Assembly: GCA_040767805.1 (NCBI GenBank)
Contig: JAXGNU010000009.1
Span: 1-58,589, forward strand
DNA from: Thermovirgaceae bacterium
GTDB lineage: Bacteria; Synergistota; Synergistia; Synergistales; Thermovirgaceae
Direction of reading: 5' to 3'
DNA: 58,589 bases
Part shown: positions 1,922 to 24,443 of the stretch, piece after piece
Position numbering within the stretch: the stretch's first letter is position 1
Layout of the letters: each line of letters opens with the position of its first letter
Notes under the pieces: model-generated
The model's input: the letters and a program-made list of their open reading frames with translations, nothing else
What the model was told of the DNA's origin: nothing
The model's database searches: none
Program-made: the position numbers and the translations under genes

Positions 1922-2153
1922 GGTGAGAGCGAGGGGTTGTGACCGGAAAGCGACAAGGTCCCCTTCCTTTCGGAAGCGGGTAATGTCACCCCTTAAGGGG
2001 ACTCGGTTTTTTCCATTAAAGCCCCGACAAGGATTCCTGGGCGGCAGAATCATACCTAACCAGGTATTCGTAAATAATAGAATCCACGTCACCATCCTGG
2101 TCCGGCGTCAGTTGCCAAGCGATGACCTACTTTTAAAAACCTTCCTAAATTAT

Positions 2154-7821: not shown

Positions 7822-7852
7822 TTTTAGTCAACTCCCCGGTGGAAAAGAATGA

Positions 7853-8869
7853 TCATCTCTGGCGGGTGACGTCCTCATAAAAAGACAATACTCCTGCCGC
7901 CATGTCTGGGATCGAAGGGACAACCCCGGGGTCAAACCGTGGAGGGCCTATTCTCCCTGAAAGGATATCCTCGATCCCCTGTCGCCATTTTCCCACGTCC
8001 CCCGGTGTCACCAAAGGAGCGCTTTCGCCTACCAGTTCCCTTACAGGCCCTATATCCGAGGCAAGGACCGGGATCCCAACCCTGATCGCCTGCATTAGGA
8101 CCAAACCCATCCCCTCATCGAGGGAAGGAAAAAGCAGTAGTTCGCTTTCGGCCATCCACTCCTCAGGGTTATCTTGAAAGCCATGAAAAAAAACCCTACC
8201 CTCAAGCCCCAAGGAAGCGGCCAAGGCTTCCAAGTCTTCTCTCTTGGGACCGTCCCCAACAATATCAAGGCGCCATTCTTGTTCCCTGATCCCCGAAAGC
8301 GCTTGGATCACCACTTGCAACCCTTTTCTGTCGGTGAGGCGCCCGAGGAAAAGGAGTTTTGTGACCCTGGTTTCCCTTTTTGAACACTTTCGGCCAGAAA
8401 AAGGAATGCCGTTTATAATGACTACTGTTTTCGCAGGTAGTGAACCGGAGAGATGGGATCTTACCGCCTCGCTGCCACATATTGAACCATGAGCTCTTTT
8501 AAATGGCCTTATTGCCCAGTCTTTCCTGTAACGGTCGTGAGCCGTAAAAACCCAGGGTATATCCGACATCGAGGACGCCCACCAGGCGATCCATACCGGT
8601 ACCCTCGAGTGGGCATGAAGGATATCCCATCCTTCTCCTTTCGCCCTGGCGGCGATCTTCAAGGCCGAATAAAACCCCATGAGGGGGTCCTTCCGGTGGA
8701 CAGGCAGCCTCCAGAACTTGACCGACGGGTCAAGCTTATCCTCCAATTTGCCGCCGGCGGTGATGACCGTCACCTGATGGCCCATCGCGGCCAGCTCATT
8801 GGAAAGCCAAAGGACGTGCCGTTCCACGCCGCCCTCGTGGAACTCGGGCAAGATCTGGGCTATCTTCAA
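7853..8869 (-). CDS. family 4 glycosyltransferase
   Basis: KIAQILPEFHEGGVERH, HAHSR, GRLTDRKG, PSLDEGMGLVLMQA; probable TTG start at 8869 overlapping upstream stop (TTGA). Confidence 0.9.
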   Translation of the reverse strand: MKIAQILPEFHEGGVERHVLWLSNELAAMGHQVTVITAGGKLEDKLDPSVKFWRLPVHRKDPLMGFYSALKIAARAKGEGWDILHAHSRVPVWIAWWASSMSDIPWVFTAHDRYRKDWAIRPFKRAHGSICGSEAVRSHLSGSLPAKTVVIINGIPFSGRKCSKRETRVTKLLFLGRLTDRKGLQVVIQALSGIREQEWRLDIVGDGPKREDLEALAASLGLEGRVFFHGFQDNPEEWMAESELLLFPSLDEGMGLVLMQAIRVGIPVLASDIGPVRELVGESAPLVTPGDVGKWRQGIEDILSGRIGPPRFDPGVVPSIPDMAAGVLSFYEDVTRQR

Positions 8870-10026
8870 GGACCCCAACCCTGGATGATCCACTCGGCCG
8901 CCCTCCTCGCCTCGTTGAACGAAAGACCTTCGTTTTTCCTCCCCTGGGCCGGCGGTTTTTCATCGATCCCCTCGGGGTCATATTCCATTGCCAATCCCCT
9001 GTCACAGAATGATTCTATCATTAAGTCAAACCTGGGAATGCCCCAAAGCCTTCGGGGGGCCAGCAATTTTTTCTCGACCATCTTTGCCGTGATGTCCTGG
9101 AGAGCTTTCCTGGCCCCTCCCTGCCTTCCGATCCTGAGGATCTGGACGATGTGCCCCCCGGTCGCCGCCTCGGAGATCATGGAGACCGAGTCCTCGGTGC
9201 AGAAAATACGCTCACAGGCCCCGAGCATGCCGGGGACGGGATTCCAGGGGTCTCTGGTCCCCAAGACCAGCATCCTGACGTGGGGAAACCTTCTCACGGC
9301 CTCTTCGATCCTGGCTTCGGTCTCGGGCCGGGTCCTGCGGGAGGTGGTCATGTATACTTCGGCCCCCCTGGTCTTCGCCTCCTCCAGCAGGGGAAGCAGC
9401 ACCTCCCCCACCCAGGAGGGGGGAATGGTGTAGTTGGCGTCGTCCCCGCCGACCAATATCCCCCATCGCCTATTTTCCCCGCCGGGGAACCTGGACAGGA
9501 GCAGGGAGCCTTCCTCCTGGAGCAGTTCCTCCCGGATCATATTAGGGGCGCCGAGGGTTATGAGGAGGTTGGGGGAAGGCCGAGGATGATCATGCTCAGG
9601 GACGATGGCGAAGTCAAAAGGGGCCGTCCCCAGCACCGATGGAGTCATGATGGTACAGCATTTCTGCTCGGTCGCCCTGGCTAGGGCCAGGGCAAAAGGG
9701 GCGGCGCTGCTCCCTGCTGACAAAAAAAGGGCTGTTCCTGGATTGTTATTTTTTTTGAACAGTTTTTCCCGGGCTGAATCGAGGTGCCCGCCGCCCCCTG
9801 CCTGGCAGAGCCACTTCTCTGCTTCCTTCGCATCCACGCCAGGTAGGAGGAGGGGTTTGAATTTCAACAGGCGGATCCTTTCCCAACCAGAATAACGAGG
9901 CGCTCCCATCTCCAGTACAACAGCACCTGTAAACCTGGAGATCCAGCCGGCCACTCCTCTCGACTGGGAAACATGGCCCTGTATCCCGTCACTCAGGAGA
10001 AAGACAAAGGAGGGGAAAAGTGCCAC
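8866..10026 (-). CDS. ELM1 (mitochondrial fission ELM1-like)/GtrOC1 family putative glycosyltransferase
   Basis: LSDGIQGHVSQSRG, FDFAIVPEHD, LVGGD, TTSRRT, CTEDSVSMISEAATGG match the ELM1 family; GTG start with AAAAGGAG RBS. Confidence 0.82.
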   Translation of the reverse strand: MALFPSFVFLLSDGIQGHVSQSRGVAGWISRFTGAVVLEMGAPRYSGWERIRLLKFKPLLLPGVDAKEAEKWLCQAGGGGHLDSAREKLFKKNNNPGTALFLSAGSSAAPFALALARATEQKCCTIMTPSVLGTAPFDFAIVPEHDHPRPSPNLLITLGAPNMIREELLQEEGSLLLSRFPGGENRRWGILVGGDDANYTIPPSWVGEVLLPLLEEAKTRGAEVYMTTSRRTRPETEARIEEAVRRFPHVRMLVLGTRDPWNPVPGMLGACERIFCTEDSVSMISEAATGGHIVQILRIGRQGGARKALQDITAKMVEKKLLAPRRLWGIPRFDLMIESFCDRGLAMEYDPEGIDEKPPAQGRKNEGLSFNEARRAAEWIIQGWGP

Positions 10027-10196
10027 TTAATCACTCCTTTTCATTTGAGAATAAGCATTGCAATTGTACTCAAGAAATGGACCTTGACCTTGTTTAAAAT
10101 GGTTGTTGCAGTCTTGATGGACTCATTCCAGCCTTCCCTTTGACAATACCCCAGCATCTCATTCAAATGAAAAGCCAGTAGAACCTTGCCAATGTA

Positions 10197-10909
10197 ATGA
10201 CCTTAAAAAAGAACCGGAAGCCGACAAGGCGGAAGCCGTTTCTGGCCGAGCTGGAACAGTTCGTTCCATGGAAAGATCTGAATGCCATCATAGGGCCTTC
10301 CGATCCCCACTCCAAGGCAAGGAAGGGAAAACCACCCAAGCCTGAACGGATGCTCCGGGTCCATCCTCCAGCTAATGCCACCATCATCAACGCCCCGCCA
10401 CAGTGGAATAACAGGGAGAAAAAGCGGGATCCAAAGATGAGATACGCCAAAAAAGCACAACCAGAAATATTTTGGAATGAAGAACCATGTCAGGGTTGAC
10501 AGGGGCATCAAGCTGGTCCACAGTCTTGTAACAACATCGTAGAATGTTAACAAGAACCGGATGGTAAGAGACCTTCTTCACGGAGGCGAGGAGGCCGAAT
10601 GGGGTGACATGACACTTCCTTCATGAGACAGAACAAAGTGATTAGGGAGAAAACCCCTAAGGCACTTGACCTGACCCAGAAGAGGGATGCGAATTACAGG
10701 AAGCTCTCCGAAGAGAGAAAGGAAAAGAATTCCTCCGGAATTCCAGCCCGAGTAAATCACGTCTTCGACGTGGCAAAACATATTTTTTAATACAGGAAGG
10801 TTCCCTATTAGGGTCTTTCGAAGTACTTCTATTTCATCTTTGTTATTTTACGTTGTAGAACCTTAATATGGTCAGGTGGGATCTGCTCTCGCTCTTTGCA
10901 GGGTCATAG
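10197..10909 (+). pseudogene. degenerate IS5-family (IS5 subgroup) transposase with internal deletion, frameshifts and stops
   Basis: Successive blocks align by eye with IS5 InsH: PTRRKPFLAELEQFVPW...PERMLRVH | ATIINAP...RDPKM | YFGMKNHVRVD..KLVHSLVTT..DLLHGGEEAEWGD | ARVNHVFDVAKHIF*YRKVPY*GLSK | NLNMVRWDLL...*. Confidence 0.8.
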
Positions 10910-11035
10910 TGTCCCTGGTGTCAATTAACACCCAGATTCCCGCAGTAAATTTACATCCACTTTCCCGCAGATATACACATTCCTTCTTGAACGCGTTGGG
11001 GTGATTCGTGAACCTGAAATGTTTGACCGTTCAGG

Positions 11036-11827
11036 TCATCCCTCCTTCCGCGGTGCGGGCCTGGTCCGTTGTTCCATCTCCCAGAGGCGGTAACTGCTTC
11101 CGTCGACATGAACGACGTGGCAATGGTGTAAAAGCCTGTCCAGGATAGCGGTAGTGAGGACTTCGTCTCCTGCAAGCATCTCCGGCCAATCCCGTATGCT
11201 CTTGTTCGACGTGATGATCGTGCTCGCCCTTTCGTACCTGGCGCTTACCACCTTGAAGAGCAGGTGGGCGTCGCCCCGGTCCAGGACCTGAAACCCCAGC
11301 TCGTCTATCACGAGAACACCCGAGGAGAGGTATTTCCTCCTCCTGTTTCGCCTGGAAGGGTTCTCCTCGTCCCGCCTGAGGCGAAAAAGCAGGTCGTCGG
11401 CAGTCAGCCAGGAGACGGAGAAGCCATTCTGGACGGCCCGCACCCCTAACGCCGCGGCGAGGTGGCTCTTGCCCACTCCGGGCGGGCCGAGGAGGAGGAT
11501 GTTCTCCTTCCTCTTGGCGTATTCGCAGGTCGAAAGCAGCTCGATCTCCTTTTTGTTCACGCTCCGACCAAAGGTGAAGTCGAAGCTTTCAAGGGTCTTG
11601 CCCTGGGGCAGGCCGGACAGCTTCAGCGAGGTCCTTATCCTGCGCTCTTCCCGGTATTCATGTTCTCTTCTCAAAACCTTTTCCAGAAAGTCACCGTAGG
11701 AGGCGTTGTCCTTTACGGCCTGTTCCATGAGCTCCGCCACGAGGTGCTGGGCATGCTCAAAGCCCATCTCTTCCAGCAAAGACCTGCTCGCGTCCAGACC
11801 GGTCACTGCCTCTTGAAGCCTGGTCAT
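11036..11827 (-). CDS. istB: IS21 helper AAA+ ATPase
   Basis: GPPGVGKSHLA Walker A, LVIDELGF Walker B, ITSNKS, AILDRLLHH. Confidence 0.96.
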   Translation of the reverse strand: MTRLQEAVTGLDASRSLLEEMGFEHAQHLVAELMEQAVKDNASYGDFLEKVLRREHEYREERRIRTSLKLSGLPQGKTLESFDFTFGRSVNKKEIELLSTCEYAKRKENILLLGPPGVGKSHLAAALGVRAVQNGFSVSWLTADDLLFRLRRDEENPSRRNRRRKYLSSGVLVIDELGFQVLDRGDAHLLFKVVSARYERASTIITSNKSIRDWPEMLAGDEVLTTAILDRLLHHCHVVHVDGSSYRLWEMEQRTRPAPRKEG

Positions 11828-13110
11828 GACCGTGTACCCACAGCTTCCGCGTAGCGATCTATGGAACGCCTGGGGGCATCTTCTATCTCCCAGCTTCTGG
11901 GTATTACGATCTCCCTGCCAATTTTCCCAAGAGGAACAGGGGTCTTTCCCGTGCCTTCGCTGGCCCCTTCGTAGTGGCCCTGGTCAATGAGAAGCCTGCA
12001 GTCCGTTTTGCGCGGGAAGGTGCAGAGCAGTTTCCCCTCTCCCCATATCTCGACGGTGTCCGTACACCCCCTGACCTGGACTGTCCGTTTAGTCCAAGTG
12101 TAGGGGACGCTGTAACGTCTTCCCTCGAAGGAGACAAGGCAATCCCGGCCAACTTCCCTCGAGACCTGTACATCGAAGGGTACAGGAAGAAAAAATGGAA
12201 GGGGCTTTAGATGCTGCTTTTCAAGGTTCCAGCTGTCGTAGATGCTTTTGCCCGTTACTGGGCATAGTAACTTCCGTGATCTGGCAAGGATCCGGAGGGT
12301 GCTGGTCTCCTGCAGGTCCTCCATATCCTCGAACCGGTCCTTCTCCGTAATCTGGAGCGTCTTCACATCCTGGACCCTACGTTCCGCCTTGCCCTTGTCC
12401 CTGGGTGTCCTGACCCTGTGGGGGTCTATGGCGAAATCCATCTGCTTCGCGTAGGAGGCGTACCCTTCGTTGAGCTTCGCCCAGGCTCCGCAGCCGCAGG
12501 CTACTCCCGTTTTGAGGTTGTCGATCCTGACCGTGGACGGGACACCTCCCAGGAATTCGAAGGCCCTGTTGTGGCAGGTAAGCCAGGTGAGCATGTTTTC
12601 GCTCCGGCTCCAGACGACGGACCACATCCGGGAGTGGGACAGGGTCATTATGAATGCCGAGATCTTTGTCTCTCCGCCAAGTTCGTGGATATAGATCTTC
12701 TTTTGAAGCCAGTCGGCCTGAGCTTGCGCCCCCGGCTTGGTCTCCACCCGGCGGAAGGGGGCAGGGAAAGGGGCCTTGCGCCTCCTTTTGACGAACCTGT
12801 AGACACTCATATAGCTCCCCGTGTATCCGTGGTCCGCGCAGAGTCTCTCATACAATGCCTGAACGGATTCCGGCCGCTCCTGCCCTTCCTGCTCCTGTAT
12901 CCACTCGAGGACAAGGGGTCGGAAGGGAGCGCACGCTTCCTCCTGGAGCGATCTGCCATCCACGGCTCCTGTCCGATGCCGTTCGAGCCTGTATCTCAAG
13001 GTGCTTTCGTCCACGCAAAAGGTGGACGCTATATCCCTGATGCTTTTGTGGTTTGCTAGTTCTTCCGCGCACATGATGTGATGCTCCTTTAGCTTCGCCA
13101 CGGTTGGCAC
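11824..13110 (-). CDS. istA: IS21 DDE transposase
   Basis: N-terminal HTH; RVETKPGAQAQADW, FLGGVPSTVRIDNLKT, PRDKGKAER, FEGRRYSVP; ATGA overlap with istB. Confidence 0.95.
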   Translation of the reverse strand: MPTVAKLKEHHIMCAEELANHKSIRDIASTFCVDESTLRYRLERHRTGAVDGRSLQEEACAPFRPLVLEWIQEQEGQERPESVQALYERLCADHGYTGSYMSVYRFVKRRRKAPFPAPFRRVETKPGAQAQADWLQKKIYIHELGGETKISAFIMTLSHSRMWSVVWSRSENMLTWLTCHNRAFEFLGGVPSTVRIDNLKTGVACGCGAWAKLNEGYASYAKQMDFAIDPHRVRTPRDKGKAERRVQDVKTLQITEKDRFEDMEDLQETSTLRILARSRKLLCPVTGKSIYDSWNLEKQHLKPLPFFLPVPFDVQVSREVGRDCLVSFEGRRYSVPYTWTKRTVQVRGCTDTVEIWGEGKLLCTFPRKTDCRLLIDQGHYEGASEGTGKTPVPLGKIGREIVIPRSWEIEDAPRRSIDRYAEAVGTRS

Positions 13111-13542
13111 CCCCGTCCAGGTCCTTCCTGAACAAAGAATGCCATATCCGTTTACAAGACTTCACCTCAAGATTGTATCCATGTGCGGGAATCTGGATGT
13201 AAATTTAGATCCATCATATGGGTGTTGGTGACACCTGGATAATGGGGAAAACCAAAAAACGAAAAGAGCGATACAGGCCTCCGTAGGTCTTGTAATAATC
13301 ATCAAAAGGCCAAAAAGGCTTGGATGGCCACATGAAACGGATTCGGGTGTCAAGGTTCAGCAGTTGCGGCTTCCAAGTTTTTCTGTAAAAAAAGTTCCTT
13401 AAGATTCCTTTGTATTTAATCAATTTTCTCGAATATTTTCCTTTGCCCCAATAGTAAAAAAGAAACTTCATCAATTTAGGAGGGGAATGCTATTCCGCGG
13501 CTAACCAGAAGCGACAGCGTTGCCCTAACACCACTGAAGTGT

Positions 13543-14196
13543 TTGAATAATCTGCGAAAACACATCCGTTACACTTTCCGTTTCACCTTGAGAGCCTTGT
13601 TAAGAGATAACGCAAACAGATTCTGTTTCGGACCAGATGCTCCCAAGTTTGCTGAAAGAATCTGGGTAAACCCCTTTGATTGCACAGTTTGCCTCACCGG
13701 ATTAAGTAATCGTTACACCGGAAAGGTCGTTGGGGACCCTTGGCCTCCCAAAGGTGGCACGATTCGTGAATTCAGCGATAGTTTTAAACTGCAAGCATGC
13801 TTTGAACATTGGAAGAAAGGAATCCTGTGGGAGGAAACCGGGATCTATGATCGTCTTCTACAAAGAATAAAAGCAGACCCGAGAGGCCGTTTTGACGACT
13901 GTTCGAACATTGAGGACATCCAGAAAAGATATAAAAAACTGGATGATCTTTTCAATGAATCAAAGAAGAAAGGTTATTACCCAGAGATTAAACCGAGTAA
14001 CAATAACTGGGCCTTCAGAGAATATGACGGCATTACCATCCATATTGGTCCTGATGGCCGTCTCTATTTTGGTGGAAATGGCACCCATCGATTTGCTCTA
14101 GCCCTTGTGTTGCAACTGACCCGGATCCCGGCCATGTTAGGTTGTGTTCACATAAATGCACTACCATTATTGCCATCATACCGGGAAAAAGAGTGA
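13543..14196 (+). CDS. hypothetical protein with C-terminal ParB/sulfiredoxin-like G-x-H-R motif
   Basis: 217 aa low-GC ORF, the only intact plus-strand gene seen; WEETGIY...RYKKLDDLFNESKKKGY...ITIHIGPDGRLYFGGNGTHRFALALVLQLTRIP. Confidence 0.7.
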   Translation: MNNLRKHIRYTFRFTLRALLRDNANRFCFGPDAPKFAERIWVNPFDCTVCLTGLSNRYTGKVVGDPWPPKGGTIREFSDSFKLQACFEHWKKGILWEETGIYDRLLQRIKADPRGRFDDCSNIEDIQKRYKKLDDLFNESKKKGYYPEIKPSNNNWAFREYDGITIHIGPDGRLYFGGNGTHRFALALVLQLTRIPAMLGCVHINALPLLPSYREKE

Positions 14197-14431
14197 AAGG
14201 ACATGTAAAAGAGTTCAGCTGTCCAAACTAAAACAGAACCGCTCGAAAACCTTTGAAAAAAGAACATAAGCCTTGTTGTAATCCGCCTTCAGGACCCGAG
14301 CTATTGTTGCCTGATCCTTCACGGGCCCGTCGCTCCGCTTCAAAAGCACCAAGATGTTCTGTACTGCGCAGACCAGGTTTTCCTAGATGCTCTCTCCTCA
14401 TCACTTCCTCCAGTGTGCACGGTTTTAGCCG

Positions 14432-14515
14432 TAAGGCCTGTCCCTGGTTTTCATGACTCCTTACGCCGTCCTTCAGGACGAACACTATCCCTGTACCCCT
14501 GGACCCGTCTTGCAT
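14432..14515 (-). pseudogene. possible 5' remnant of a second ELM1-family gene
   Basis: MQDGSRGTGIVFVLKDGVRSHENQGQAL resembles the N-terminus of the intact 8866-10026 protein (FVFLLSDGIQGHVSQSRGVA); similarity ends after ~28 codons. Confidence 0.4.
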
Positions 14516-14552
14516 GGTCTTTATCTACCTTCTACCCTTCCCTGCACAATGG

Positions 14553-14595
14553 GCCGACTGACACCCTTCAACACCCCAGGGCCCGGCGCACCCTT
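14553..14595. repeat. direct repeat copy 2 (duplicate of kdsB 3' end)
   Basis: GCCGACTGACACCCTTCAACACCCCAGGGCCCGGCGCACCCTT; 42/43 identical to 19384-19426, 37 bp perfect. Confidence 0.95.
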
Positions 14596-14597
14596 CT

Positions 14598-15569
14598 CTA
14601 TCGGGCGAACACGCCAACGCTTTGTAGCATCTCGACCGAGGACTTGAACACTTCATCGACCTTGATAGTCCTCATAGGCTCGTTGCCGCCATTCCTCCCG
14701 GCCGCCACACAACTATGCCTGGTACCCCAGGGACCGAAACGAGCTAGGTTCTTCGGCAGGTAGAGGCCTACCACCGGCGTGCCCACGGCGCAGGCCAAGT
14801 GAAGGGGCCCGGTGTCGTTGGACACGAAAAGGACCGATCTCTCAATAAGCGCCCCAAGGGTCGTGACGTGACGGTCCCCTGAAAAGTTACCGCACCTTTC
14901 TTCGCCTATCGCTTCGCATATCTTTGCGGCAGCTTCCCGCTCCGCCCCGTAGTATCCCGTCACGCCGAGATTAATACAAAAGGAGTCGACCACACGAAGG
15001 CCCAGTTCGATGAAGTTTTCCAGGGGCCAGGTCTTGTATTTCCCGGGGGTTCCGGGGTTGAGGAGTACCCAGGGCCTGTCCTTCCACCTCGAGGCCATCA
15101 ACCGGCAGGCCTCTTCCCTTGACTGTGGCGGAATGAAAAACCGGAGTCTCCGGCCATAGACGGGCACCCCCAGGGTTGTCATGCACCAGATGTTTCTCTC
15201 CACCTCGTGCATTTTTTGGGGGAGGAAGAGTTCCCTTAATCCCCAGAAAGGGCGATAACGGGCGCCGGAAAAGAGAGGCATCGCCGAAGAGCGCAAGTCT
15301 ACCAGGAGATCATGGGGGTATGACCTGATCGTTCCGACCGATGCCAGGCGCCCTCTCAAACCCTTTTCACGACGGTATTCCTCGACCTTGTCCCAAAGGG
15401 GGTCTCTCTCAAGGACCGGAAGTGCCACGGGCCCGGCAAGAATTGTGAAGTGCGCGTCGGGAAGGAAACGCCTGAGGTTCCAGAGGGCGGCGGTGGAAAG
15501 GATCATGTCCCCCATGCATGAAAGGCCGATGACAAGAACGCGCTCAATCTTTTCGGGGTCTAACTTCAG
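14598..15569 (-). CDS. family 9 glycosyltransferase (ADP-heptose:LPS heptosyltransferase, WaaC/WaaF-like)
   Basis: RVLVIGLSCMGDMILST, LLNPGTPGKYKTWP, FVSNDTGPLHLACAVGTPVVGLY; probable CTG start at 15569 behind GAGGGAGG. Confidence 0.88.
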   Translation of the reverse strand: MKLDPEKIERVLVIGLSCMGDMILSTAALWNLRRFLPDAHFTILAGPVALPVLERDPLWDKVEEYRREKGLRGRLASVGTIRSYPHDLLVDLRSSAMPLFSGARYRPFWGLRELFLPQKMHEVERNIWCMTTLGVPVYGRRLRFFIPPQSREEACRLMASRWKDRPWVLLNPGTPGKYKTWPLENFIELGLRVVDSFCINLGVTGYYGAEREAAAKICEAIGEERCGNFSGDRHVTTLGALIERSVLFVSNDTGPLHLACAVGTPVVGLYLPKNLARFGPWGTRHSCVAAGRNGGNEPMRTIKVDEVFKSSVEMLQSVGVFAR

Positions 15570-15702
15570 CCCGTTCCCTCCCTCTCTTTCCCGTACACCC
15601 GGGGTAAACCGACCCAAAACGGGGGAGCAACCGGGACCCATCACCACGATGAGCCTGCAGACCGGCAGAGGCCTAGGAGCGCCATGGGTTTTCCCGTAGA
15701 TT

Positions 15703-17202
15703 CTACTTTTCGCCGCCTCCGGCGGGGAATTTTCTCGCCCGTTCCCATATTTTGGAAGAACTAAGGCCTTCCAGCAGCGGGACCAGGACCACCTTGCCGC
15801 CCCAGGAGGCGACCTCGCGGGCTCCAGCGATCTCTTCCTCACGGTAGTCCCCGCCCTTGACGAGAACGTCAGGCCTCAGGACATTGATGAGGGGCAAGGG
15901 CGTCTTTTCCTCGAATACCACCACCATGTCCACCGCTGCCAGTGACGACAGCACTTTGGCCCGGAGTTCCTGGGGATTGAGAGGCCGGCCCGGCCCCTTG
16001 TTCATCTTGACCGACCGATCGGAGTTCAACCCGACCACAAGCCTGTCGCCCTGCTCTTTAGCTTTCTCCAGGCAATGGACATGACCAGCGTGGAGGATAT
16101 CGAAGCAGCCGTTGGTGAAAACGATCCTGTTCCCTTGTTTTTTCCATTCTTCCGTGATTAGAGCCGCATCCTCAGCATCCTTGACCTTCCCGGAGGAACC
16201 CGGAGGCTGAACTCTCATGATAATGTCCAGCAGTTCTCCCCTGCTTGCAGCGTAGATCCCGACCTTTCCCACGACGTACCCGGCTGCCAGGTTGGCCATC
16301 CTGGCAGAGTCCCTCAGGGAGGCCCTCGCCGAGATGAAGGCGGAAAGGACCGCCACAACCGTGTCGCCCGCTCCGGTCACATCAAAAATCTCAAGGGCCC
16401 TGGCGGGTTCGTGGAAGGTGGCGTCCGCCGAGAGGAGTGAAAGGCCTTTTTCAGACCTCGTCACGACGATGGAGCCAAGGCTGAATCGGTCCATCAGCTC
16501 CCGGGCCGCCAGTTCGATGTCGTCGTCGGCGTTCGGGACCTCCCTCCCCCGGGCTGCACCCAGCTCCTTGAGGTTCGGGGTCACCAGGGAAGCTCCCCTG
16601 TACTTTTCCCATTCCGCCCCCTTGGGGTCGACGATGAGGGGTATCCCCCTGTCCACGCACTCCCGGATGACGCCCTGGCATACCCCGAAGGTGCAGACTC
16701 CCTTCCCGTAGTCCGAAAGGACGACCCCATTGAAACCGTCGAGAAAAGGGCCGGTCACCCGTTTCAACAGTCTTTCCTCTTCCCCGGGTGAAAGGGGCGT
16801 CTCGTCCTCGAAATCGAGCCTCAGCATCTGCTGCCTCGAGGAAAGGATCCTCACCTTCTTCGTGGTGGACCTCTCCGCTGAGGGGATCAGCCTGCCGCCT
16901 ATTCCTTTCGAAGCCACCAGGTCCGCGAGGACCGCTCCTTCTTCATCGTCGCCGACGACAGCGGCCAACTCGACCGGGCAACCCAGGCAGACGAGGTTAT
17001 GAGCGACGTTGCAAGCTCCCCCCAAACCGAAGCTCGATGAACGGACCTTGACCACTGGGATGGGCGCTTCGGGCGAAATCCTTCCCGTTGAACCCTCGTA
17101 GGTCTGGTCCAGGATGGGGTCCCCGACCACGAGCACCCTTGAGCCGCCGAAACCTTTTCTGAGAAGATCGAGGGCGGCCTCCTGTACTACCATCTCATCC
17201 AC
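15703..17202 (-). CDS. hldE: bifunctional heptose 7-phosphate kinase / heptose 1-phosphate adenylyltransferase
   Basis: VLVVGDPILD..RISPEAPIPVV, DVTGAGDTV (PfkB) plus VFTNGCFDILHAGHV..GLNSDRSV..VKGGDY. Confidence 0.96.
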   Translation of the reverse strand: MDEMVVQEAALDLLRKGFGGSRVLVVGDPILDQTYEGSTGRISPEAPIPVVKVRSSSFGLGGACNVAHNLVCLGCPVELAAVVGDDEEGAVLADLVASKGIGGRLIPSAERSTTKKVRILSSRQQMLRLDFEDETPLSPGEEERLLKRVTGPFLDGFNGVVLSDYGKGVCTFGVCQGVIRECVDRGIPLIVDPKGAEWEKYRGASLVTPNLKELGAARGREVPNADDDIELAARELMDRFSLGSIVVTRSEKGLSLLSADATFHEPARALEIFDVTGAGDTVVAVLSAFISARASLRDSARMANLAAGYVVGKVGIYAASRGELLDIIMRVQPPGSSGKVKDAEDAALITEEWKKQGNRIVFTNGCFDILHAGHVHCLEKAKEQGDRLVVGLNSDRSVKMNKGPGRPLNPQELRAKVLSSLAAVDMVVVFEEKTPLPLINVLRPDVLVKGGDYREEEIAGAREVASWGGKVVLVPLLEGLSSSKIWERARKFPAGGGEK

Positions 17203-18172
17203 CCTCCCCGAAAAGGTAACCGCCGTTCCTTTCCAGAAGAGCCACGTACCTCTCTACCGCTTCCTCCAGGGGGGTAAAACCCGCCACGAAGCCTGCCGAT
17301 CTCAACCTGGAGAGGTCGGCTTTGGTGTAACCCTGGTATTTTCCTTTCATTTCTTCCGGAAAGGGGATGTATTCCACCCTGCCCTTCCCGACCGATCTTA
17401 TAACGGAGTCGGCCAGGTCCTGGAAGGACCTGGACTTGCCGGTCCCGCAGTTGAAAATACCGGACTTCTCAGGGTGTTCCAGGAAGAAGAGGTTCACCTT
17501 GACGGCGTCCTCCACGGCGAGGAAATCCCTTCGCTGTTCCCCGGGGCCGTAACCGCCGGAACCCTCGAAGAGCCTTATCGTTCCGTCGGCGATGATGCTG
17601 TTGTAGGCATGGAAAACCATCGAGGCCATTTTCCCCTTGTGGGCCTCCTGGGGGCCGAAGACGTTGAAATACCTCAACCCCACGACCTGGGACCCTGCCG
17701 TCGGGAGTTTATGCCTCACGTAGTTGTCAAAAAGGAGCTTTGAAAAAGCGTACAGGTTCAGTGGGAACTCACAGCCGGGTTCCTCCCGGAAACCGTTCCC
17801 GCCCGACCCGTAAACCGACGCGGAGGAAGCGTAGATGAAGGGGAAGCCTTCGGCTACGGCGAGATCGAGGAGTTCACGGGAGTACCGGTAATTATTGTCC
17901 AGCATGTAGTCCCCGTCGGTATTCAGGGTGTCAGAACAAGCCCCCTGGTGGAAAAGGGCCCTGATCCTTTTTCCTTTAAAAGCTCCTCGCCTGACCAGTT
18001 CCCTAAAGTCGTCCCTGTCGATAAAGTCCGAAAACCCTAGTCCCCTGAGATTTTTATACTTTTCCGACCTGCCCACGTGGTCCACCACGAGGATGTCGTC
18101 GATGCCCTTCCCGTTCAGCCCGGCGACGAGGTTGCTGCCGATAAACCCCGCGCCGCCGGTCACGATGATCAA
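17195..18172 (-). CDS. hldD: ADP-L-glycero-D-manno-heptose 6-epimerase
   Basis: [61 protein letters not shown]. Confidence 0.96.
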   Translation of the reverse strand: MIIVTGGAGFIGSNLVAGLNGKGIDDILVVDHVGRSEKYKNLRGLGFSDFIDRDDFRELVRRGAFKGKRIRALFHQGACSDTLNTDGDYMLDNNYRYSRELLDLAVAEGFPFIYASSASVYGSGGNGFREEPGCEFPLNLYAFSKLLFDNYVRHKLPTAGSQVVGLRYFNVFGPQEAHKGKMASMVFHAYNSIIADGTIRLFEGSGGYGPGEQRRDFLAVEDAVKVNLFFLEHPEKSGIFNCGTGKSRSFQDLADSVIRSVGKGRVEYIPFPEEMKGKYQGYTKADLSRLRSAGFVAGFTPLEEAVERYVALLERNGGYLFGEGG

Positions 18173-18786
18173 GAAGGATCACCCCCCGCCGGGCCGGGGT
18201 CGCCGCCGAATATCATCTCTTCGACCAGGGCGCAAAGCACGTGTTCGACGGCCAGATGCACATTCTGAATGACCGACGTGTTTTTTGAATCGACCTCGAT
18301 CGCCACATCGGCGTGCCGCCCGATCGCTCCTCCCCTGCATGTCAGTGCGATCGTACCTATCCTGAGGGTTTTTGACACCCTGACGGCCCTTTTGACGTTC
18401 TCCGAATCCCCGCTGGTGCTGATGCCCATCAGCACATCGCCCGGCCGTCCAAGGGCCTGTACCTGCCGGAGGAACACGTTCTCGAAGCAGTAATCGTTGC
18501 AGAAGGCCGTAAGGAACGACGTATCCGTAGTGAGGGCGATGGCGGGCAGGGCCGGCCTCTCTCTTTGTTTTGAGAGGCGGCATACGAACTCGGCGGCCAT
18601 GTGCTGGCAATCGGCGGCGCTCCCCCCGTTGCCGCAGAGCATCAGTTTACCACCCGACCTCATGGAACCGGCGATCAGGACGGCCGCGCGGTAGATTGAC
18701 CCGCCCTCCTGGTCCGGCAACGCGGCCAGTATCCCCGCGGTCTCAAGGAGCGGGGAGGATATCATTTTTTTGATGCGATCATCCAT
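18169..18786 (-). CDS. gmhA: sedoheptulose 7-phosphate isomerase
   Basis: CGNGGSAADCQHMAAE, LPAIALTTDTS, ISTSGDSENV, IQNVHLAVEH; start reassigned to ATG 18786. Confidence 0.95.
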   Translation of the reverse strand: MDDRIKKMISSPLLETAGILAALPDQEGGSIYRAAVLIAGSMRSGGKLMLCGNGGSAADCQHMAAEFVCRLSKQRERPALPAIALTTDTSFLTAFCNDYCFENVFLRQVQALGRPGDVLMGISTSGDSENVKRAVRVSKTLRIGTIALTCRGGAIGRHADVAIEVDSKNTSVIQNVHLAVEHVLCALVEEMIFGGDPGPAGGDPS

Positions 18787-19351
18787 CCCGGGTCCCACCT
18801 TCTCCCCCTTCGACCCATAGGCGGATAACTTCAGCGGCGGCCTTGACGTCATCCACCACGGCGTCCCAGAGGGGGCCCCCTTCCTCTTCGGCCTTTCGGC
18901 CGCAACCCGTCCTGACGAGGACCCCCTTCGCGCCGATCGCCCTGGCCAGCTCCATGTCCGAACTCTTGTCGCCCACGACAAAGGACTTCAGCAGGTCGAT
19001 GCCCAGGTCCCTGGAAGCCCTAAAGGCCAGGCCGGGTTTCGGTTTCCGGCAATCGCACCCTTCCCAAGGCGCGTGGGGGCAATGATACACCCCATCGAGG
19101 CTCGCCCCGCCTTCTCCCAAAAGCAGGGCCATTCTCTCCGTCACCCTGGAATAGTCTTCTTCGAGGAACAGCCCTCTTCCGATCCCCGACTGGTTCGTGA
19201 GGACGACGACCTTCAGCCCCATCGAGGTCATCCTTCCAATTGCTTCCGGGGCTCCATCGATGAGGACCACGTCCTCCGGATCGGAGATAAACCCTTTATC
19301 CTCGATTATCACGCCGTCCCGGTCCAGGAAGACGGCTCTTGAGTACTTCAT
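18779..19351 (-). CDS. gmhB: D-glycero-D-manno-heptose 1,7-bisphosphate phosphatase
   Basis: AVFLDRDGVI, TNQSGIGRG, CPH...CDCRKPKPG, VGDKSSD. Confidence 0.95.
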   Translation of the reverse strand: MKYSRAVFLDRDGVIIEDKGFISDPEDVVLIDGAPEAIGRMTSMGLKVVVLTNQSGIGRGLFLEEDYSRVTERMALLLGEGGASLDGVYHCPHAPWEGCDCRKPKPGLAFRASRDLGIDLLKSFVVGDKSSDMELARAIGAKGVLVRTGCGRKAEEEGGPLWDAVVDDVKAAAEVIRLWVEGGEGGTRDG

Positions 19352-19383
19352 AGCTCGAACTCCCGTGAGACAGTTTCACTGGT

Positions 19384-19426
19384 GCCGAATGACACCCTTC
19401 AACACCCCAGGGCCCGGCGCACCCTT
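19384..19426. repeat. direct repeat copy 1 (last kdsB codons, stop and 15 downstream nt)
   Basis: GCCGAATGACACCCTTCAACACCCCAGGGCCCGGCGCACCCTT; matches 14553-14595. Confidence 0.95.
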
Positions 19427-20124
19427 TCCAGGTCCTCCGGCGTGTCCACGCTGGGGCCGGACTCCCCGCGGGTCACGGCCACCTTCATATTGTAGCCGTG
19501 TTCGAGGACCCTGAGCTGTTCCAGGGATTCAACTTCGGAGAGGGGCGTCGGGGCCAGGTCCGCGTAGGTGAAGAGAAAATCCCGCCGAAAACCGTAGATG
19601 CCGATGTGTTGGAAGAGGGGGATATCCATCCGCGCCCGAAGGTAGGGTATGGGCGACCGGCTGAAGTAAAGGGCGTAACCCCGCAGGTCGGTCACCACCT
19701 TCACCGTGTTGGGGTCCGAAAGGGAGCCGGGATCGGTGATGGGGGCGCAGAGCGTCGATGACAGGGCTTCATCGTCCTCCCGGAGCACCCCCGCGGCCTC
19801 GTCGATCATGACGGGGTCGAGGAGGGGCTCATCCCCCTGGATGTTGATCACTATCGCCGCGTCGTAATGGTTCGACGCCTCCGCCACGCGGCAGGTACCG
19901 TTGGGGTGGCCGGGGGAGGTCATCAGGCATTCGCCCCCGAAGGCGCGGACGGTTTCAAAGATGCGCTCGTCGTCGGTGGCCACGACCAGCCGGTCCAGGG
20001 TCCTGGAAAGGGCCGCCCGTTCATGGACCCTCTGGATGAGGGTCTTGCCGCAGATATCGGCCAGGGGCTTGCCCGGGAGCCTGGTGGAGGCATAGCGGGC
20101 CGGGATCACGCCGAGGACTTTCAT
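19399..20124 (-). CDS. kdsB: 3-deoxy-manno-octulosonate cytidylyltransferase (CMP-Kdo synthetase)
   Basis: VIPARYASTRLPGKPL, INIQGDEP, ALYFSRSPIP, HIGIYGF, ESLEQLRVLEHG, SVDTPEDL. Confidence 0.97.
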   Translation of the reverse strand: MKVLGVIPARYASTRLPGKPLADICGKTLIQRVHERAALSRTLDRLVVATDDERIFETVRAFGGECLMTSPGHPNGTCRVAEASNHYDAAIVINIQGDEPLLDPVMIDEAAGVLREDDEALSSTLCAPITDPGSLSDPNTVKVVTDLRGYALYFSRSPIPYLRARMDIPLFQHIGIYGFRRDFLFTYADLAPTPLSEVESLEQLRVLEHGYNMKVAVTRGESGPSVDTPEDLERVRRALGC

Positions 20125-21332
20125 GACGGGACCCCGTGCCGCCTCGCCCAGGCCAGGGCCTCATTCCTGTCGACGGGCTCTATTTCATTGACTATCCACT
20201 CCCTCATGGCCTCGCCCTCGGGGGTGTGCTGGGCGTAGCTCATGAAGTCCAGGGGGATCCCCAGGGCCTTTGAGGCTCTCCAGGCCATGACGGGCCAGAC
20301 CTCGCCGATGTCCCCGATGATGGGGATGCTCCCCTCGTGGCGGGCGAAGGCGGACATCTCCATCCGGAAGGGGATCCTGGAGATCTTCGTCTTGGGGAGG
20401 CCCCTGTCGATGGCCTCCTGGATGAGGGATGAGCCCGTCTCGAGGTCCCTGGCCCTGCGAAGGTTTTCGTCCAGGTCAATCCGGATGAGGGTCTTGCCCT
20501 TGAGGGAAAAGGTCCGCAGCCCCTTCCACCACGACCAGATACCGTGCCCCGTGTAGCACTCGAAGGGGCCGTCGTGGATCTCCTGGGTGAGGGCTACCGC
20601 CGATTCTATGATGACATCGGCGGACTCGAGCATCATGGCGACGCGCATGGACCGCTCGAAAAGGGAGATGCTGTCGCCGACGGCCATGCCCACGTGGCCG
20701 CTACCCACCATCTGGGGGATGCTCACCAGCACGGGAAGGCCCTTCTCCGCCCCCTTGCCTATCATGGTGCGCCGGTCGGCCCCCCACCCGGCCACGATCT
20801 CGAAGGGCAGGCCGTAAGCCTTGCAGATTACCAGCAGCTCGCCGGCCAGGTTCTCCGTCCTCAACCCCATGGGGTAGGCCATGTTGCCGGCGGCCTTGAT
20901 GACGAACCGACCGTCGGCCTTCTCCCCTTTTTCGAGGAGGTCCTCGTCGAGGACCATCTCCTTTCGGAGCGTGTCCAACTGCTCTCGGGAAAGCCGGGTG
21001 AACTCGAAGACGCCGCTTCGGGGCATGAAAGCGGGGTCGAAGCCCAGGTCGGCGGCGCTGCACATCTTGACCCTGTCGAGGGCTCCTGCCATTTCGTGCC
21101 CCACCACGGCGGAACTGGTGGTGACGCCGTCCACCAGGCCCTTGTCCATGAGTTCCGCGATGAGGGTGGTCACCCCTTCGTGGATGTTGGGACCGCTCCC
21201 GGTGGCCACCACGATTTTGCCACCGGCCATCTTGGCGGCCACTACTTTTTCCACGGCTTCATCGAGGCTCGCCCGGGAGCGTTCGTCCAGGTTTTCGTAA
21301 AACCGGTCCAGCAACTCCTCCTGCACTTTCAT
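20121..21332 (-). CDS. hypothetical protein, deoxyhypusine-synthase-like (DHS/NAD-binding) fold suspected
   Basis: 403 aa from ATG 21332; ATGA overlaps with both waaA and kdsB; KIVVATGSGPNIHEGVTTLIAELMDKGLVDGVTTSSAVVGHE resembles the DHS N-terminal nucleotide-binding segment; IIGDIGEVWP resembles its C-terminal segment. Confidence 0.6.
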   Translation of the reverse strand: MKVQEELLDRFYENLDERSRASLDEAVEKVVAAKMAGGKIVVATGSGPNIHEGVTTLIAELMDKGLVDGVTTSSAVVGHEMAGALDRVKMCSAADLGFDPAFMPRSGVFEFTRLSREQLDTLRKEMVLDEDLLEKGEKADGRFVIKAAGNMAYPMGLRTENLAGELLVICKAYGLPFEIVAGWGADRRTMIGKGAEKGLPVLVSIPQMVGSGHVGMAVGDSISLFERSMRVAMMLESADVIIESAVALTQEIHDGPFECYTGHGIWSWWKGLRTFSLKGKTLIRIDLDENLRRARDLETGSSLIQEAIDRGLPKTKISRIPFRMEMSAFARHEGSIPIIGDIGEVWPVMAWRASKALGIPLDFMSYAQHTPEGEAMREWIVNEIEPVDRNEALAWARRHGVPS

Positions 21333-22597
21333 GACCCGATCTCCTTTCGGATCGCTTCCACCGACGCTTTCGCCGCCCCCGAAGAAGCCGAGAAGAACAG
21401 CCCCGCCCCCTCCCGGGCGGCCTTCTTCGTGCCCGGTTCGAGGCATTTCAGCCAATGGGCAGCCATCTCCCCGGCGCACCGGACCACGGTGGAGACACCC
21501 CTTTCGCCGAGCCTTTCGGAGGCCTCCCGGAAATCCCGCATGAAGGGGCCGTGGGAGAGGGGTATGCCGAAAACGGCCGGTTCCATTATATTCTGTCCCC
21601 CCCTGTCCACGAGGCTCCCTCCCACGAAAGCCCCGTCCACTACCCCGTAGAGGTCGAAGAGGACCCCGATGCGGTCGGCTACGAGGACCTCCCAGGGGGT
21701 TTTTCCCGCTCCGGCCCCCTCCACCTCGGTGAGGAGTGCCGACGGCCCCGCCTTTCCGGCAATGCCCAGGACCCGGGCGCTCCTCTCGGGGTGGCGGGGA
21801 ACGATGATGAGCCGGGCCTCGTGGATCTTCGCCTTAAGCAACCTGAAGGCCTCCAGGACGACCTCTTCCTCGCCCGGGTGGGTGCTCCCGGCGAGGAAGA
21901 CCGGCCCCCCGCCGACGATGGACCTCGCCCACTTCAGGTCCGCCTCTTCTTTTCGAAGGATTATGGCGTCGATCTTGCAGTCCCCCGTGACCCGGACCTT
22001 CCGCTCTTCGAGGCCGATATCCAGGAGCAGGGCCCTGTCGGCTTCGGATCGGACCAGGAGGAGGGAGAAGGATCTGTACACCCTCCGCCAAAAGGAGAGG
22101 TGGCTCCGGATATGGCCGGCGGTCTTCTCGGAGAACCGCCCGTTGACCAGTATGGCGGGGATGCCCCTTTCGCGCAGTTCGTCCAGCATCAGGGGCCAGA
22201 TCTCCGTCTCGATCACCGCAAAGGCCCTGGGCCGGACCGTGTCGAGTGCGCGGCGGACGATCCAGGGTATATCCCAGGGGTAGTAAAGGTGCTCGTGGAA
22301 AAGCCCCCCCGCGACGCGGTAGGCCATCTCCCGCCCCGTGGTCGTGGTGGTGGAAAGGAGGATCCCCTCGGGGCCCGCGCCCTCCCGGGCGAGAATCTTT
22401 AAAAGGGGCCAGGCGGACTGCACTTCCCCCACCGAGACGGCATGGAACCACAGAGGATCTTCAGGCAGGCTGCCCTTCTTCTCCTCGCTGTAGAGGCCCC
22501 TCCTCTCCGCCAGCCCCGGGGCGTACTTTTTCGCCAGCCAGGGGAAGACGGCGCAATAGGCTGCCGAGATGAAGGAGCGGTAAAGGAGGGATGCCAG
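21329..22597 (-). CDS. waaA: Kdo transferase
   Basis: LWFHAVSVGEV, IETEIWP, AGSTHPGEEE, VPRHPER, FVGGSL..GGQNIMEPA; frame extends 55 codons above the ORF-track GTG to a CTG at 22597, giving a typical 422 aa. Confidence 0.93.
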   Translation of the reverse strand: MASLLYRSFISAAYCAVFPWLAKKYAPGLAERRGLYSEEKKGSLPEDPLWFHAVSVGEVQSAWPLLKILAREGAGPEGILLSTTTTTGREMAYRVAGGLFHEHLYYPWDIPWIVRRALDTVRPRAFAVIETEIWPLMLDELRERGIPAILVNGRFSEKTAGHIRSHLSFWRRVYRSFSLLLVRSEADRALLLDIGLEERKVRVTGDCKIDAIILRKEEADLKWARSIVGGGPVFLAGSTHPGEEEVVLEAFRLLKAKIHEARLIIVPRHPERSARVLGIAGKAGPSALLTEVEGAGAGKTPWEVLVADRIGVLFDLYGVVDGAFVGGSLVDRGGQNIMEPAVFGIPLSHGPFMRDFREASERLGERGVSTVVRCAGEMAAHWLKCLEPGTKKAAREGAGLFFSASSGAAKASVEAIRKEIGS

Positions 22598-22598
22598 G

Positions 22599-23606
22599 TC
22601 AGACCACTCCCGCCTTGAGGAGTTCGTGGATGTGGATTATTCCCGTGGCCCTCCCCTCCTCGGTGACCACCAGGCAGGATATCTCGCGCTCCTCCATGAT
22701 ATGCATCGCCTCAGCGGCCAGCCGGTCCGGAGCTATGGTCCTGGGGTCCCTCGTCATGACCTCCTCTATCGGCAGGGAGAGGGCGTCCAGGCCCCTGTCC
22801 TCGAGGAGCCGACGAAGGTCCCCGTCGGTGAAGATGCCCGAAGCCATCCCACGGTCATCCTCGATTATCGTGGCCCCGAAGCCCTTGCTCGTGATCTCGA
22901 AAAGGGCTTCCCTGACCGAGGAATCCCGTTTCACCCTGGGCACCCTTTCCCCCGTGGACATTACGTCCGAGACCCTCAGGAGCAGCCGCTTTCCCAGCGC
23001 CCCCCCGGGGTGGAAGAGGGCGAAATCCTCGGGACGGAGGCCCCGGAGTTCGGTGACCATGCCGGCCAGGGCGTCGCCAAGGGCCAATTGCAGCGTGGTG
23101 CTGGTGGTGGGGGCGAGTCCGAGGGGGTCCGCCTCTTTCGCCACGCCGGAATGGATGACCACGTCGGAGTCCCTGGCGAGCCTGGAGGAGGTGTCGCCCG
23201 TCATGGCTATGATCGGGGCGCCGAGCCTCCTGAAAAAGGGGAGCACCTCGAGGACCTCCCTCGTCTGGCCGCTGTTGCTGAGGAAAAGACCGGCGTCCTC
23301 CCGGCAGACCATCCCCAGGTCGCCGTGGGCCCCTTCGGCGGCGTGGAGGAAGAAGGCCGGCGTGCCCAGCGATGCCAGCGTGGCGGCGATCTTGCGTCCG
23401 ACCAGGCCGGACTTGCCCATCCCCACGACCACGAGCCTCCCCTCGCACCGGCTTATGATCCTTGCCGCCTCCACCAGTTCCTGCCCCACCCTGGCGACGG
23501 CTCGGAGGATCTCCTCGGCCTCCATCCTCAGGACCCGGCGGCCGACCTCGAGCAGCCTCTCATCGTCGAGATCCTTGTTGTCCCGTTCCCTCGGCAGGCT
23601 GACCAC
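22599..23606 (-). CDS. kdsD: arabinose 5-phosphate isomerase (KpsF/GutQ; SIS + CBS)
   Basis: GMGKSGLVGRKIAATLASLGTPAFFLH, HGDLG, APTTSTT, FHPGGALG, GIFTDGDLRR. Confidence 0.95.
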   Translation of the reverse strand: MVSLPRERDNKDLDDERLLEVGRRVLRMEAEEILRAVARVGQELVEAARIISRCEGRLVVVGMGKSGLVGRKIAATLASLGTPAFFLHAAEGAHGDLGMVCREDAGLFLSNSGQTREVLEVLPFFRRLGAPIIAMTGDTSSRLARDSDVVIHSGVAKEADPLGLAPTTSTTLQLALGDALAGMVTELRGLRPEDFALFHPGGALGKRLLLRVSDVMSTGERVPRVKRDSSVREALFEITSKGFGATIIEDDRGMASGIFTDGDLRRLLEDRGLDALSLPIEEVMTRDPRTIAPDRLAAEAMHIMEEREISCLVVTEEGRATGIIHIHELLKAGVV

Positions 23607-23609
23607 CGG

Positions 23610-24443
23610 TCACTTCCCCCCTTCCGCGACGCCGGCGGCGCGGTGTATCGCCAGGACCCTCTGCAGCAGGTTCTCGAGCGAGTCGAGGGAGACCATGTTG
23701 GGGCCGTCGCTCTTGGCCGAGTCCGGGTCGGGGTGGGTCTCGAGGAAAAGGGCGTCGATCCCCGCGGCGGCGGCGGCCCGGGCCAGGACAGGGACGAACC
23801 GCCTGTCCCCCCCGCTGGATGTCCCCTGCGCCCCGGGCATCTGCACACTGTGGGTGGCGTCGAACATTACGGGGTAGCCCAGGGACCTCATGATGGCCAG
23901 GGAGCGCATGTCGACCACCAGCTGGCCGTACCCGAAGGTGCTCCCCCTCTCGCAGAGGATGACCTTGTCGTTGCCCGCCTCGAGGCACTTGGAGACGGCC
24001 TGCCCCATGTCCACGGGGGCTAGGAACTGCCCCTTCTTGATATTCACTACCTTGCCCGTGGCCGCGGCAGCGACGACGAGGTCGGTCTGTCTGCAGAGGA
24101 AGGCCGGTATCTGAATAATGTCCACCACCTCGGCCGCCCTTTCGGCCTGCCCCGGGAGGTGGATGTCGGTGAGGACGGGACAGCCGACGGAGCCCTTCAC
24201 CTCGGCGAGCCACTCGAGGCCTTTATCGAGGCCCGGCCCCCTGAAGCTGTGGATGGAGGTCCTGTTGGCCTTGTCGAAGGAGGCCTTGAAGACGTAGGGG
24301 ATGCCGAGTTTTCCGCATATACCCGAGACCTCCCGCGCGATGAGGAGGGCCGACTCGAGGTCCTCGAGGACGCAGGGACCCGCCACGAGGGCCAGCCTCC
24401 CGTCGCCGAAGGTGACCCCTCCGGCGGAAAAGATCTTCGTCAT
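23610..24443 (-). CDS. kdsA: Kdo 8-phosphate synthase
   Basis: [46 protein letters not shown]. Confidence 0.97.

Follow-up and report, generated by a model that had tools for sequence, protein, structure and literature searches.

In the 58,589-nucleotide (nt) stretch of contig JAXGNU010000009.1 examined here (the window), from a Thermovirgaceae bacterium of the phylum Synergistota, a block of lipopolysaccharide (LPS) genes is bracketed by two direct copies of a 43-nt sequence that includes the 3′ end of kdsB. The block, or module, holds gmhB, gmhA, hldD, hldE and one family 9 glycosyltransferase (GT9) gene, all of them in the orientation of kdsB, on the minus strand. A preliminary description of this DNA took the arrangement for an ADP-heptose cassette, gained as one unit at kdsB and potentially excisable. 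We argue that the repeat is probably, if with modest confidence, what remains of a single rearrangement, made without a recombinase, within a resident LPS locus. The window belongs to a 1.65-Mb metagenome-assembled genome that is 80.6% complete (G000); other G-numbers denote genomes of the phylum with which it was compared, among them its congeners G004 and G001.

The anatomy is as first described. The copies are identical at 42 of 43 positions, lie 4831 nt apart from start to start, and share a perfect 37-nt core beginning at 14559 (left) and 19390 (right) (Table 1). The sequence occurs just twice in the assembly (next-best match E = 0.16). The right copy includes the kdsB stop codon, and the left copy lies 2 nt from that of GT9 (14598–14600). 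The GT9–repeat junction, in the filled phase, is found in both metagenome contigs matched by a 28-nt repeat pattern, one of which reaches just 32 nt past the repeat, and contigs of all four sequencing runs mapped end within both copies. Relative to the G000 right copy, extension of the similarity beyond 43 nt is not significant over 30 nt upstream (p ~ 0.13) or 12 nt downstream (p ~ 0.34). A longer, decayed repeat was therefore rejected; the p ~ 0.02 obtained against G004 kdsB is not relied on.

Downstream of its stop codon, the left copy aligns with the spacer and ELM1 start of G004 (p ~ 0.002); the right copy shows no such alignment (p ~ 0.55). The left copy is followed by a 24-codon 5′ remnant of ELM1, which matches ELM1 P0085 at 18 of 24 positions, the best among the ELM1 homologues compared. 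The duplication of the kdsB 3′ end is thus of insertion type, as had been claimed, in that the left copy runs into what appears to be the ancestral kdsB–ELM1 junction, and it gives the host gene back its 3′ end. A duplicated gene end is by itself no proof of a genomic island. Past the right copy, the DNA switches to sequence derived from upstream of gmhB, the alignment with G004 gmhB starting about 15 nt before the ATG, and this border has the appearance of a deletion-type junction.

The gene order in relatives bears directly on these junctions. In G004, the order is kdsB-ELM1-GT4-(variable)-waaL-gmhB-gmhA-hldD-hldE-GT9-SLH porin, where GT4 is a family 4 glycosyltransferase. The run gmhB-gmhA-hldD-hldE-GT9-SLH is also found in G005 and G011, hldD-hldE-GT9-SLH in G012, and gmhB-gmhA-hldD-hldE within the same LPS locus in G010, G018, G024, G049, G050, G051, and G053. 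Among the nine genomes whose KdsB is closest, ELM1 comes immediately after kdsB in eight; in the ninth, G027, about 1.5 kb lies between them. A KdsB allele that is 91.7% identical to that of the window has the same C-terminus, and its accession number is consecutive with those of ELM1 and GT4 in three records. In a frameshifted member of this allele, the frame of the repeat reads through into a G004-type spacer and ELM1. Because of the relatives' junctions and this read-through, the uninterrupted kdsB–ELM1 site is, as judged from sequence, ancestral. These relatives do not make a clear case of an empty site without the cargo, as the congeners G004 and G001 carry the same heptose genes elsewhere. 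No other locus examined has kdsB adjacent to gmhB, and a perfect repeat of at least 22 nt was found around the heptose genes in none of 22 other heptose-gene loci, some of them cut by contig ends. All five genes of the module, as well as ELM1, GT4, and waaL, are single-copy in G000. Two genomes stand apart: G002, of the same genus (8 contigs, 91% complete), has no match to KdsB, HldD, HldE, ELM1, GT9, or LpxK, reflecting either LPS loss or a missing contig, and G008 has no match to KdsB or LpxK.

From the junctions, the gene orders, and the trees described below, we infer the following course. The ancestral order would have been that of the congeners. A segment from 28 nt before the end of kdsB to the end of GT9 would have been duplicated head to tail, either in place or in a merodiploid with a related strain's allele, creating a GT9-to-kdsB-end junction. 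The first copy would then have lost ELM1-GT4-waaL, from 15 nt past the kdsB stop to just before gmhB, and the kdsB-to-gmhB junction would be due to this deletion. The second copy would have lost the heptose genes and GT9, the slot being taken by rmlB-rmlA-wecE-GNAT, and its ELM1 start would have been cut by an insertion sequence (IS) before being replaced by another ELM1. The outcome would be that every gene is single-copy again, with the heptose genes on the lpxK–kdsB operon and a 43-nt duplication left behind. As far as sequence can tell, a head-to-tail duplication from kdsB to GT9 would leave precisely the GT9-to-kdsB-end junction seen here.

The left flank supplies further traces of such a history. 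Beyond the ELM1 remnant lie, in order, an open reading frame (ORF) of unknown function, an IS21-family element within a decayed element, the intact ELM1, GT4, and a waaL-like gene, the waaL label being read from the sequence with no NCBIfam match. The remnant is truncated by the degenerate 3′ end of a DDE transposase gene, which we take to be IS1182-like; the matching ORF on contig C3 carries DUF772 and DDE_Tnp_1_6. The IS21 site is empty (10913–13234) in two of the four runs, X11 and X17, with 5 nt that fit either side of the joint. This element has two further copies at 99.6–99.7% (contigs C2 and C7) and one degraded copy (C5). Compared with G004, the intact ELM1 is 38–70% identical at the nucleotide level in its 5′ part and 72–88% at the ELM1/GT4 join. 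The 217-residue ORF at 13543–14196 (+) has a low GC content and no Pfam or NCBIfam match; the ESM Atlas groups it with unnamed clusters (feature score 0.96, TM 0.90), and it has one weak ParB_N-like structural match.

At the other end of the locus, the distal slot of G000 is now occupied by rmlB-rmlA-wecE-GNAT (labels read from the sequence), and the local alignment with G004 starts at sequence homologous to the final codons of GT9 in that congener. The leader of the SLH-porin gene scores 674 against G004 over its whole length, versus a shuffle maximum of 32.5. Searches for traces of gmhB behind waaL, and of the body of the G000 GT9 gene ahead of SLH, gave nothing above shuffles. The leader itself (1510–1930, minus strand) is long, non-coding, and strongly conserved in G004 and G012; it is possibly a structured 5′ leader.

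The locus bears several such scars, the ELM1 remnant being one and a GT4 duplication in G004 another. The latter is partial (contig L041, 9964–10417 and 14063–14388, 87–91%) and encloses a manC-like fragment and two ORFs resembling family 2 glycosyltransferases, again labelled from the sequence. Circumstantial support comes from the database matches. The longest contig recorded is 7198 nt alike for a KdsB (90.5%), for an HldD (93.5%), and for the ELM1 that best matches the remnant, which suggests that a sister lineage exists whose heptose genes are of the G000 type and whose original ELM1 is intact, and fits a lineage with the pre-rearrangement allele.

Several observations weigh against this reconstruction. 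At least three events are required, and no intermediate has turned up. Conservation of the porin promoter would suffice to explain the GT9-tail homologue in the distal slot, and a promoter-like hexamer is visible there by eye. The GT4 entries inspected, 37 cluster representatives plus 99 members listed for 10 clusters, include none with a longest contig of 7198 nt. The GT9 protein is equally close to two other genera (70–72%) and to G004 (70%). recA was not found in the G000 assembly, incomplete as it is; it is present in all four congeners. At four-fold sites, the distance to G004 is 0.87–1.14 for the five genes versus 0.32–0.61 for the kds and lpx genes, in a table some rows of which are overlapping frames. 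Finally, runs X11 and X17, which probably represent one haplotype, differ from the window at nine sites in the module, and X11 shows just two differences in 10.9 kb of flank (binomial p ~ 7e-4). Variant GmhB, GmhA, and HldE proteins occur on 4861-nt contigs, and the repeat is kept in both haplotypes seen. With nine of 11 strain differences inside, there is a hint that the module is exchanged between strains as a unit, a concentration that a plain scar does not predict.

The divergence is not confined to the bracketed genes. The four-fold-site distance to G004 is 0.92–1.10 for ELM1/GT4, and 0.13–0.28 for ORFs matching contig C14. The high distances of the five genes and of ELM1/GT4 therefore indicate that the whole distal locus, beyond the bracketed part too, was swapped with an unsampled relative in the G000 or the G004 lineage. 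GC content at third codon positions (GC3) is 0.69–0.75 in the module, lower than the 0.83–0.90 of the kds and lpx genes, but a GC3 of 0.74 ranks near the 24th percentile among 912 ORFs, crudely called, and is ordinary for the genome. Low GC3 was rejected as the mark of an island, as it stays low beyond the left repeat, with ELM1 and GT4 lower still. Trees (FastTree, midpoint-rooted) were built from a partial sample of loci: 32 HldD, 27 HldE, 14 GT9, 23 KdsD, and 16 ELM1. HldD groups with G001 and G004 (support 1.0) and HldE with G004 (0.999); GT9 remains in a clade of the family, weakly placed closest to G011 and G012. The clusters listed include none for GT9 with an identity above 74% and below 100%. 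Neither composition nor phylogeny, then, marks the cargo as foreign, HldD and HldE being sister to those of the congeners. The view that the heptose pathway was gained as one unit at kdsB is not supported, since the block is resident in the congeners and the family in the same order.

The main rival explanation, possible although we do not think it likely, is a one-off re-import, in which a strain that had already lost the distal heptose block regained the five genes as one fragment from a related lineage. The route would be a single crossover of a non-replicating circle, or illegitimate joining, at the kdsB 3′ end, duplicating the 43-nt target. The raised synonymous distance of the five genes relative to kds and lpx speaks for it, as do the patchy distribution of HldD (present in 37 of the 246 genomes of the phylum, and in 28 of the 176 of high quality), the existence of heptose-free loci such as that of G032, and the presence of comEC in G000. 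An experimental precedent is described in PMC3240628. Yet no donor with a kdsB–gmhB adjacency appears in any locus examined, the divergence from G004 continues past the repeats into ELM1 and GT4, and the most similar HldD from beyond the species apparently occurs together with an intact ELM1 and a close KdsB.

The excisable cassette of the preliminary description fares less well, and we consider it unlikely. Here RecA or slippage would excise the ADP-heptose module at low frequency, in the manner of Salmonella wzy (discussed below), giving heptose-free, phage-resistant variants that regain the module from neighbours. Whatever its origin, the repeat would now be an integrase-free switch by which the ADP-heptose pathway and GT9 leave the essential operon for 3-deoxy-D-manno-octulosonic acid (Kdo) with kdsB unharmed, the unit being exchanged between strains. 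Were this so, it would be the inner-core counterpart of wzy in a free-living member of the Synergistota, and the nine strain differences in the module would be the footprint of unit exchange. That recombination between the copies would leave kdsB intact is agreed. The gene set left after excision resembles natural heptose-free loci, the repeat is retained in both haplotypes, and the strain differences concentrate in the module, touching GmhB, GmhA, and HldE. The perfect core also exceeds the 23–27 bp minimum for RecA/RecBC recombination quoted in PMC12074656; a rare accidental deletion between the copies is consequently possible under any origin of the repeat. Such a deletion would be one-way, and a functional role for it is unsupported. 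Because the excised circle has no visible origin of replication, it would be lost, so that the result would be loss and not a toggle. Against a working switch stand the repeat's absence from congeners, its length (a third of the 113 bp of wzy, with a span nearly twice as long), and the position of the left copy amid IS debris.

The population data also bear on this point. Twenty runs from eight studies hold 80–99% of the window's words (nine of them may be its source), and runs X21–X24 hold next to none. Four runs were mapped over 7200–25200; their k = 31 Logan contigs break at the 37-nt core, so that the repeat phase is unreadable. Joint detection did find the empty IS21 site in two of these runs, unlike the k = 31-limited repeat joints. 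Contig depths for left flank, module, and right flank were 380/416/464–490, 14.8/16.4/15.8, 9.2/12.5/14, and 5.2/6.7–7.1/3.9–5.3, read along a GC gradient of 0.46, 0.60, and 0.66. An empty allele would put the module under both flanks; the module lies above the left flank in all four runs and 10–15% below the right flank in two. An empty junction was found in neither of the two metagenome contigs matched by the repeat pattern. We read the depths as showing no common empty allele, none above roughly a tenth of the population, a limit that says nothing on rare excision or rare alleles. The proposed toggling between a heptosylated and a heptose-free core finds no support in depth or contigs.

Separately, the contig depth of run X3 drops at the 3′ end of ELM1 (positions 7200–8926), from about 400 to 168, which suggests alternative alleles in that population, GT4-waaL being one of them; the break falls in the stretch most alike between congeners. 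Zero cover of run X20 at 7200–8400 was not taken as absence.

It is very unlikely that the repeat is a relic of a site-specific integrative element, with an attachment (att) core overlapping the kdsB 3′ end and an integrase now missing or supplied in trans. Such elements typically leave a target duplication that restores the end of a gene, and Brucella GI-2, with 41-bp repeats around an LPS locus, offers a parallel similar in size (PMC4700419). However, as had been noted, no integrase lies between the copies, nor does any recombinase or remnant of one, and none was found beside them. The assembly has two full tyrosine recombinase domains and two fragments, all outside the repeats; the full domain of the window is XerC-like, the other lies on contig C1, and no resolvase was found in the genome as assembled. 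The 24-nt repeat pattern has no match in viral contigs, which argues against a phage att site; plasmid records cover at most 10% of the module, and the cargo is lineage-native. A composite transposon or non-autonomous IS was likewise rejected: immediately inside the direct repeats, neither IS copies nor terminal inverted repeats were found (the 25 longest of 149 inverted pairs were checked, and the ends inspected by eye), and no multi-copy DNA besides the repeat was found at the left end (14448–14700). The XerC-like gene (48106–49074, minus strand) lies in a topA-trmFO-xerC-hslV-hslU-codY run, its neighbours being named from their sequences.

An assembly artefact, with the module contig placed twice around collapsed sequence, can practically be discounted: the genome was assembled from a metagenome and its repeat cannot be phased with k = 31 contigs, but the copies differ at one base, the left junction recurs in two other assemblies, all four adjacencies are present in all four runs, and the window's words recur across studies.

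Table 1. Features of the LPS locus of the window, in order of position.
Feature	Position	Strand	Remarks
Proposed vacated distal slot, homologue of congener GT9 last codons	1850..1930	-	Upstream of SLH-porin gene; G004 local alignment starts here
Intact mosaic ELM1-family gene	8866..10026	-	In place of truncated one; PF06258
IS21-family element (istA, istB)	10918..13233	-	Within decayed DDE element; polymorphic insertion
Degenerate DDE transposase 3′ end	14230..14447	-	Truncates ELM1 remnant; 77–78% to two places on contig C3
ELM1 5′ remnant, 24 codons	14444..14515	-	In register with congener kdsB–ELM1 junction; G004 alignment p ~ 0.002
Left repeat copy	14553..14595	-	Apparent displaced original kdsB 3′ end; duplication-type junction; also on contigs L059, L060
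GT9 glycosyltransferase	14598..15641	-	PF01075; start uncertain
hldE, bifunctional kinase/adenylyltransferase	15703..17202	-	TIGR02199 above cut-off; NF008454 486.8 vs 521
hldD, ADP-heptose 6-epimerase	17195..18172	-	TIGR02197 407.7 bits, cut-off 274.6
gmhA, phosphoheptose isomerase	18169..18786	-	Best matches NF010546, TIGR00441, both below cut-off; SIS_2
gmhB, heptose bisphosphate phosphatase	18779..19351	-	NF006506 181.7 bits, cut-off 178
Right repeat copy	19384..19426	-	Last 28 nt of kdsB (19399–19426, stop included) and 15 nt
kdsB, CMP-Kdo synthetase	19399..20124	-	TIGR00466 228.7 bits, cut-off 155.2

The module encodes GmhA, HldE, GmhB, and HldD at full length, and these four enzymes make up what is, by sequence, a complete pathway to ADP-L-glycero-D-manno-heptose. 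HldD, GmhB, and HldE domain II score above their cut-offs; for GmhA and the whole of HldE, the assignments are best matches just or moderately below cut-off. The GT9 protein scores below the cut-offs for heptosyltransferases HepI/II/III (WaaC, WaaF, WaaQ), with 67.8/185.3, 67.9/134.6, and 75.3/170.2 bits, respectively, and its structural matches in the PDB, 1psw and 3tov, are weak. Homologues at 42–50% occur in G009 and G019, both without an HldD over cut-off or a full-length HldE match. On account of these scores and homologues, the heptosyltransferase role of GT9 is not established: its sugar donor is probably ADP-heptose, and the statement that it adds heptose to Kdo is a family-level guess. 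The locus of G032 runs kdsB-ELM1-GT4-waaL-SLH, with no HldD over cut-off, and because such heptose-free versions exist, heptose loss may be tolerated. A promoter or terminator of the module's own was sought and rejected, the counts being no higher than in shuffles. ADP-heptose is an ALPK1–TIFA agonist; a role in host recognition is unsupported, 17 of the 20 runs that hold the window being digester or sludge metagenomes and three lacking a record.

Two other genes of the operon may be mentioned. LpxK (residues 22–354) at 24440–26725 (minus strand) is fused to about 400 further residues with no Pfam match, and this full length is conserved in the Synergistales loci examined. A 403-residue gene between waaA and kdsB (20121–21332, minus strand) has counterparts at 63–71% identity in G004, G001, G032, G039, G021, and G027; its one match is a weak one to the GSU2086 family.

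A search of the literature, judged by its listings, found nothing on this locus or on Synergistota LPS genetics, and comparison must be made with other systems. The gene set and the order of the heptose block are those of the Synergistales locus lpxK-kds-waaA-ELM1-GT4-gmh/hld-GT9-SLH (G004, G005, G010, G011, G024, and others). Unlike in that locus, the heptose block of G000 lies directly behind kdsB, ahead of ELM1-GT4-waaL and between repeats. Rearrangements made without an integrase that leave behind a merodiploid or the end of a gene in duplicate have been described: gene-end duplication by a single crossover of a non-replicating circle and homology-facilitated illegitimate recombination (PMC3240628), and tandem duplications made by transformation (PMC3784515). 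Those, however, were obtained in the laboratory with E. coli and pneumococcus, and the duplicated stretches measured 109–950 bp or 100–900 kb, whereas here there is an end state only. In Brucella, GI-2 encodes an integrase of its own, and IS copies lie on either side of wbkA (PMC4700419). As would be possible in the module, LPS genes are lost there through recombination between flanking repeats, but the module lacks an integrase and flanking IS copies, and the Brucella cases concern the O-polysaccharide.

The closest likeness is to wzy of Salmonella Typhimurium, which is flanked by 113-bp intergenic direct repeats in all 134 genomes checked, and for which deletion at about 1 in 500, the circle, phage selection, and reversion have all been measured (PMC12074656). 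In both cases, LPS genes lie between long, nearly or fully identical direct repeats with no recombinase identified, and deletion leaves, or in the module would leave, one copy and intact neighbours. The module differs in that the 37-bp core overlaps a gene end, five inner-core genes are enclosed, the congeners lack the repeat, and no empty allele was seen. It is thus wzy-type in anatomy; of the behaviour that defines wzy no sign was found in contigs or depths, and the integrase and foreign cargo of an island are both lacking. Should excision prove frequent and selected, repeat-mediated receptor switching would extend from the O-antigen to the inner core, and the junction would offer a PCR marker of phage pressure in digesters. 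Most likely, set beside these systems, the locus is a snapshot of LPS-locus reshuffling without the enzymes of mobile elements.

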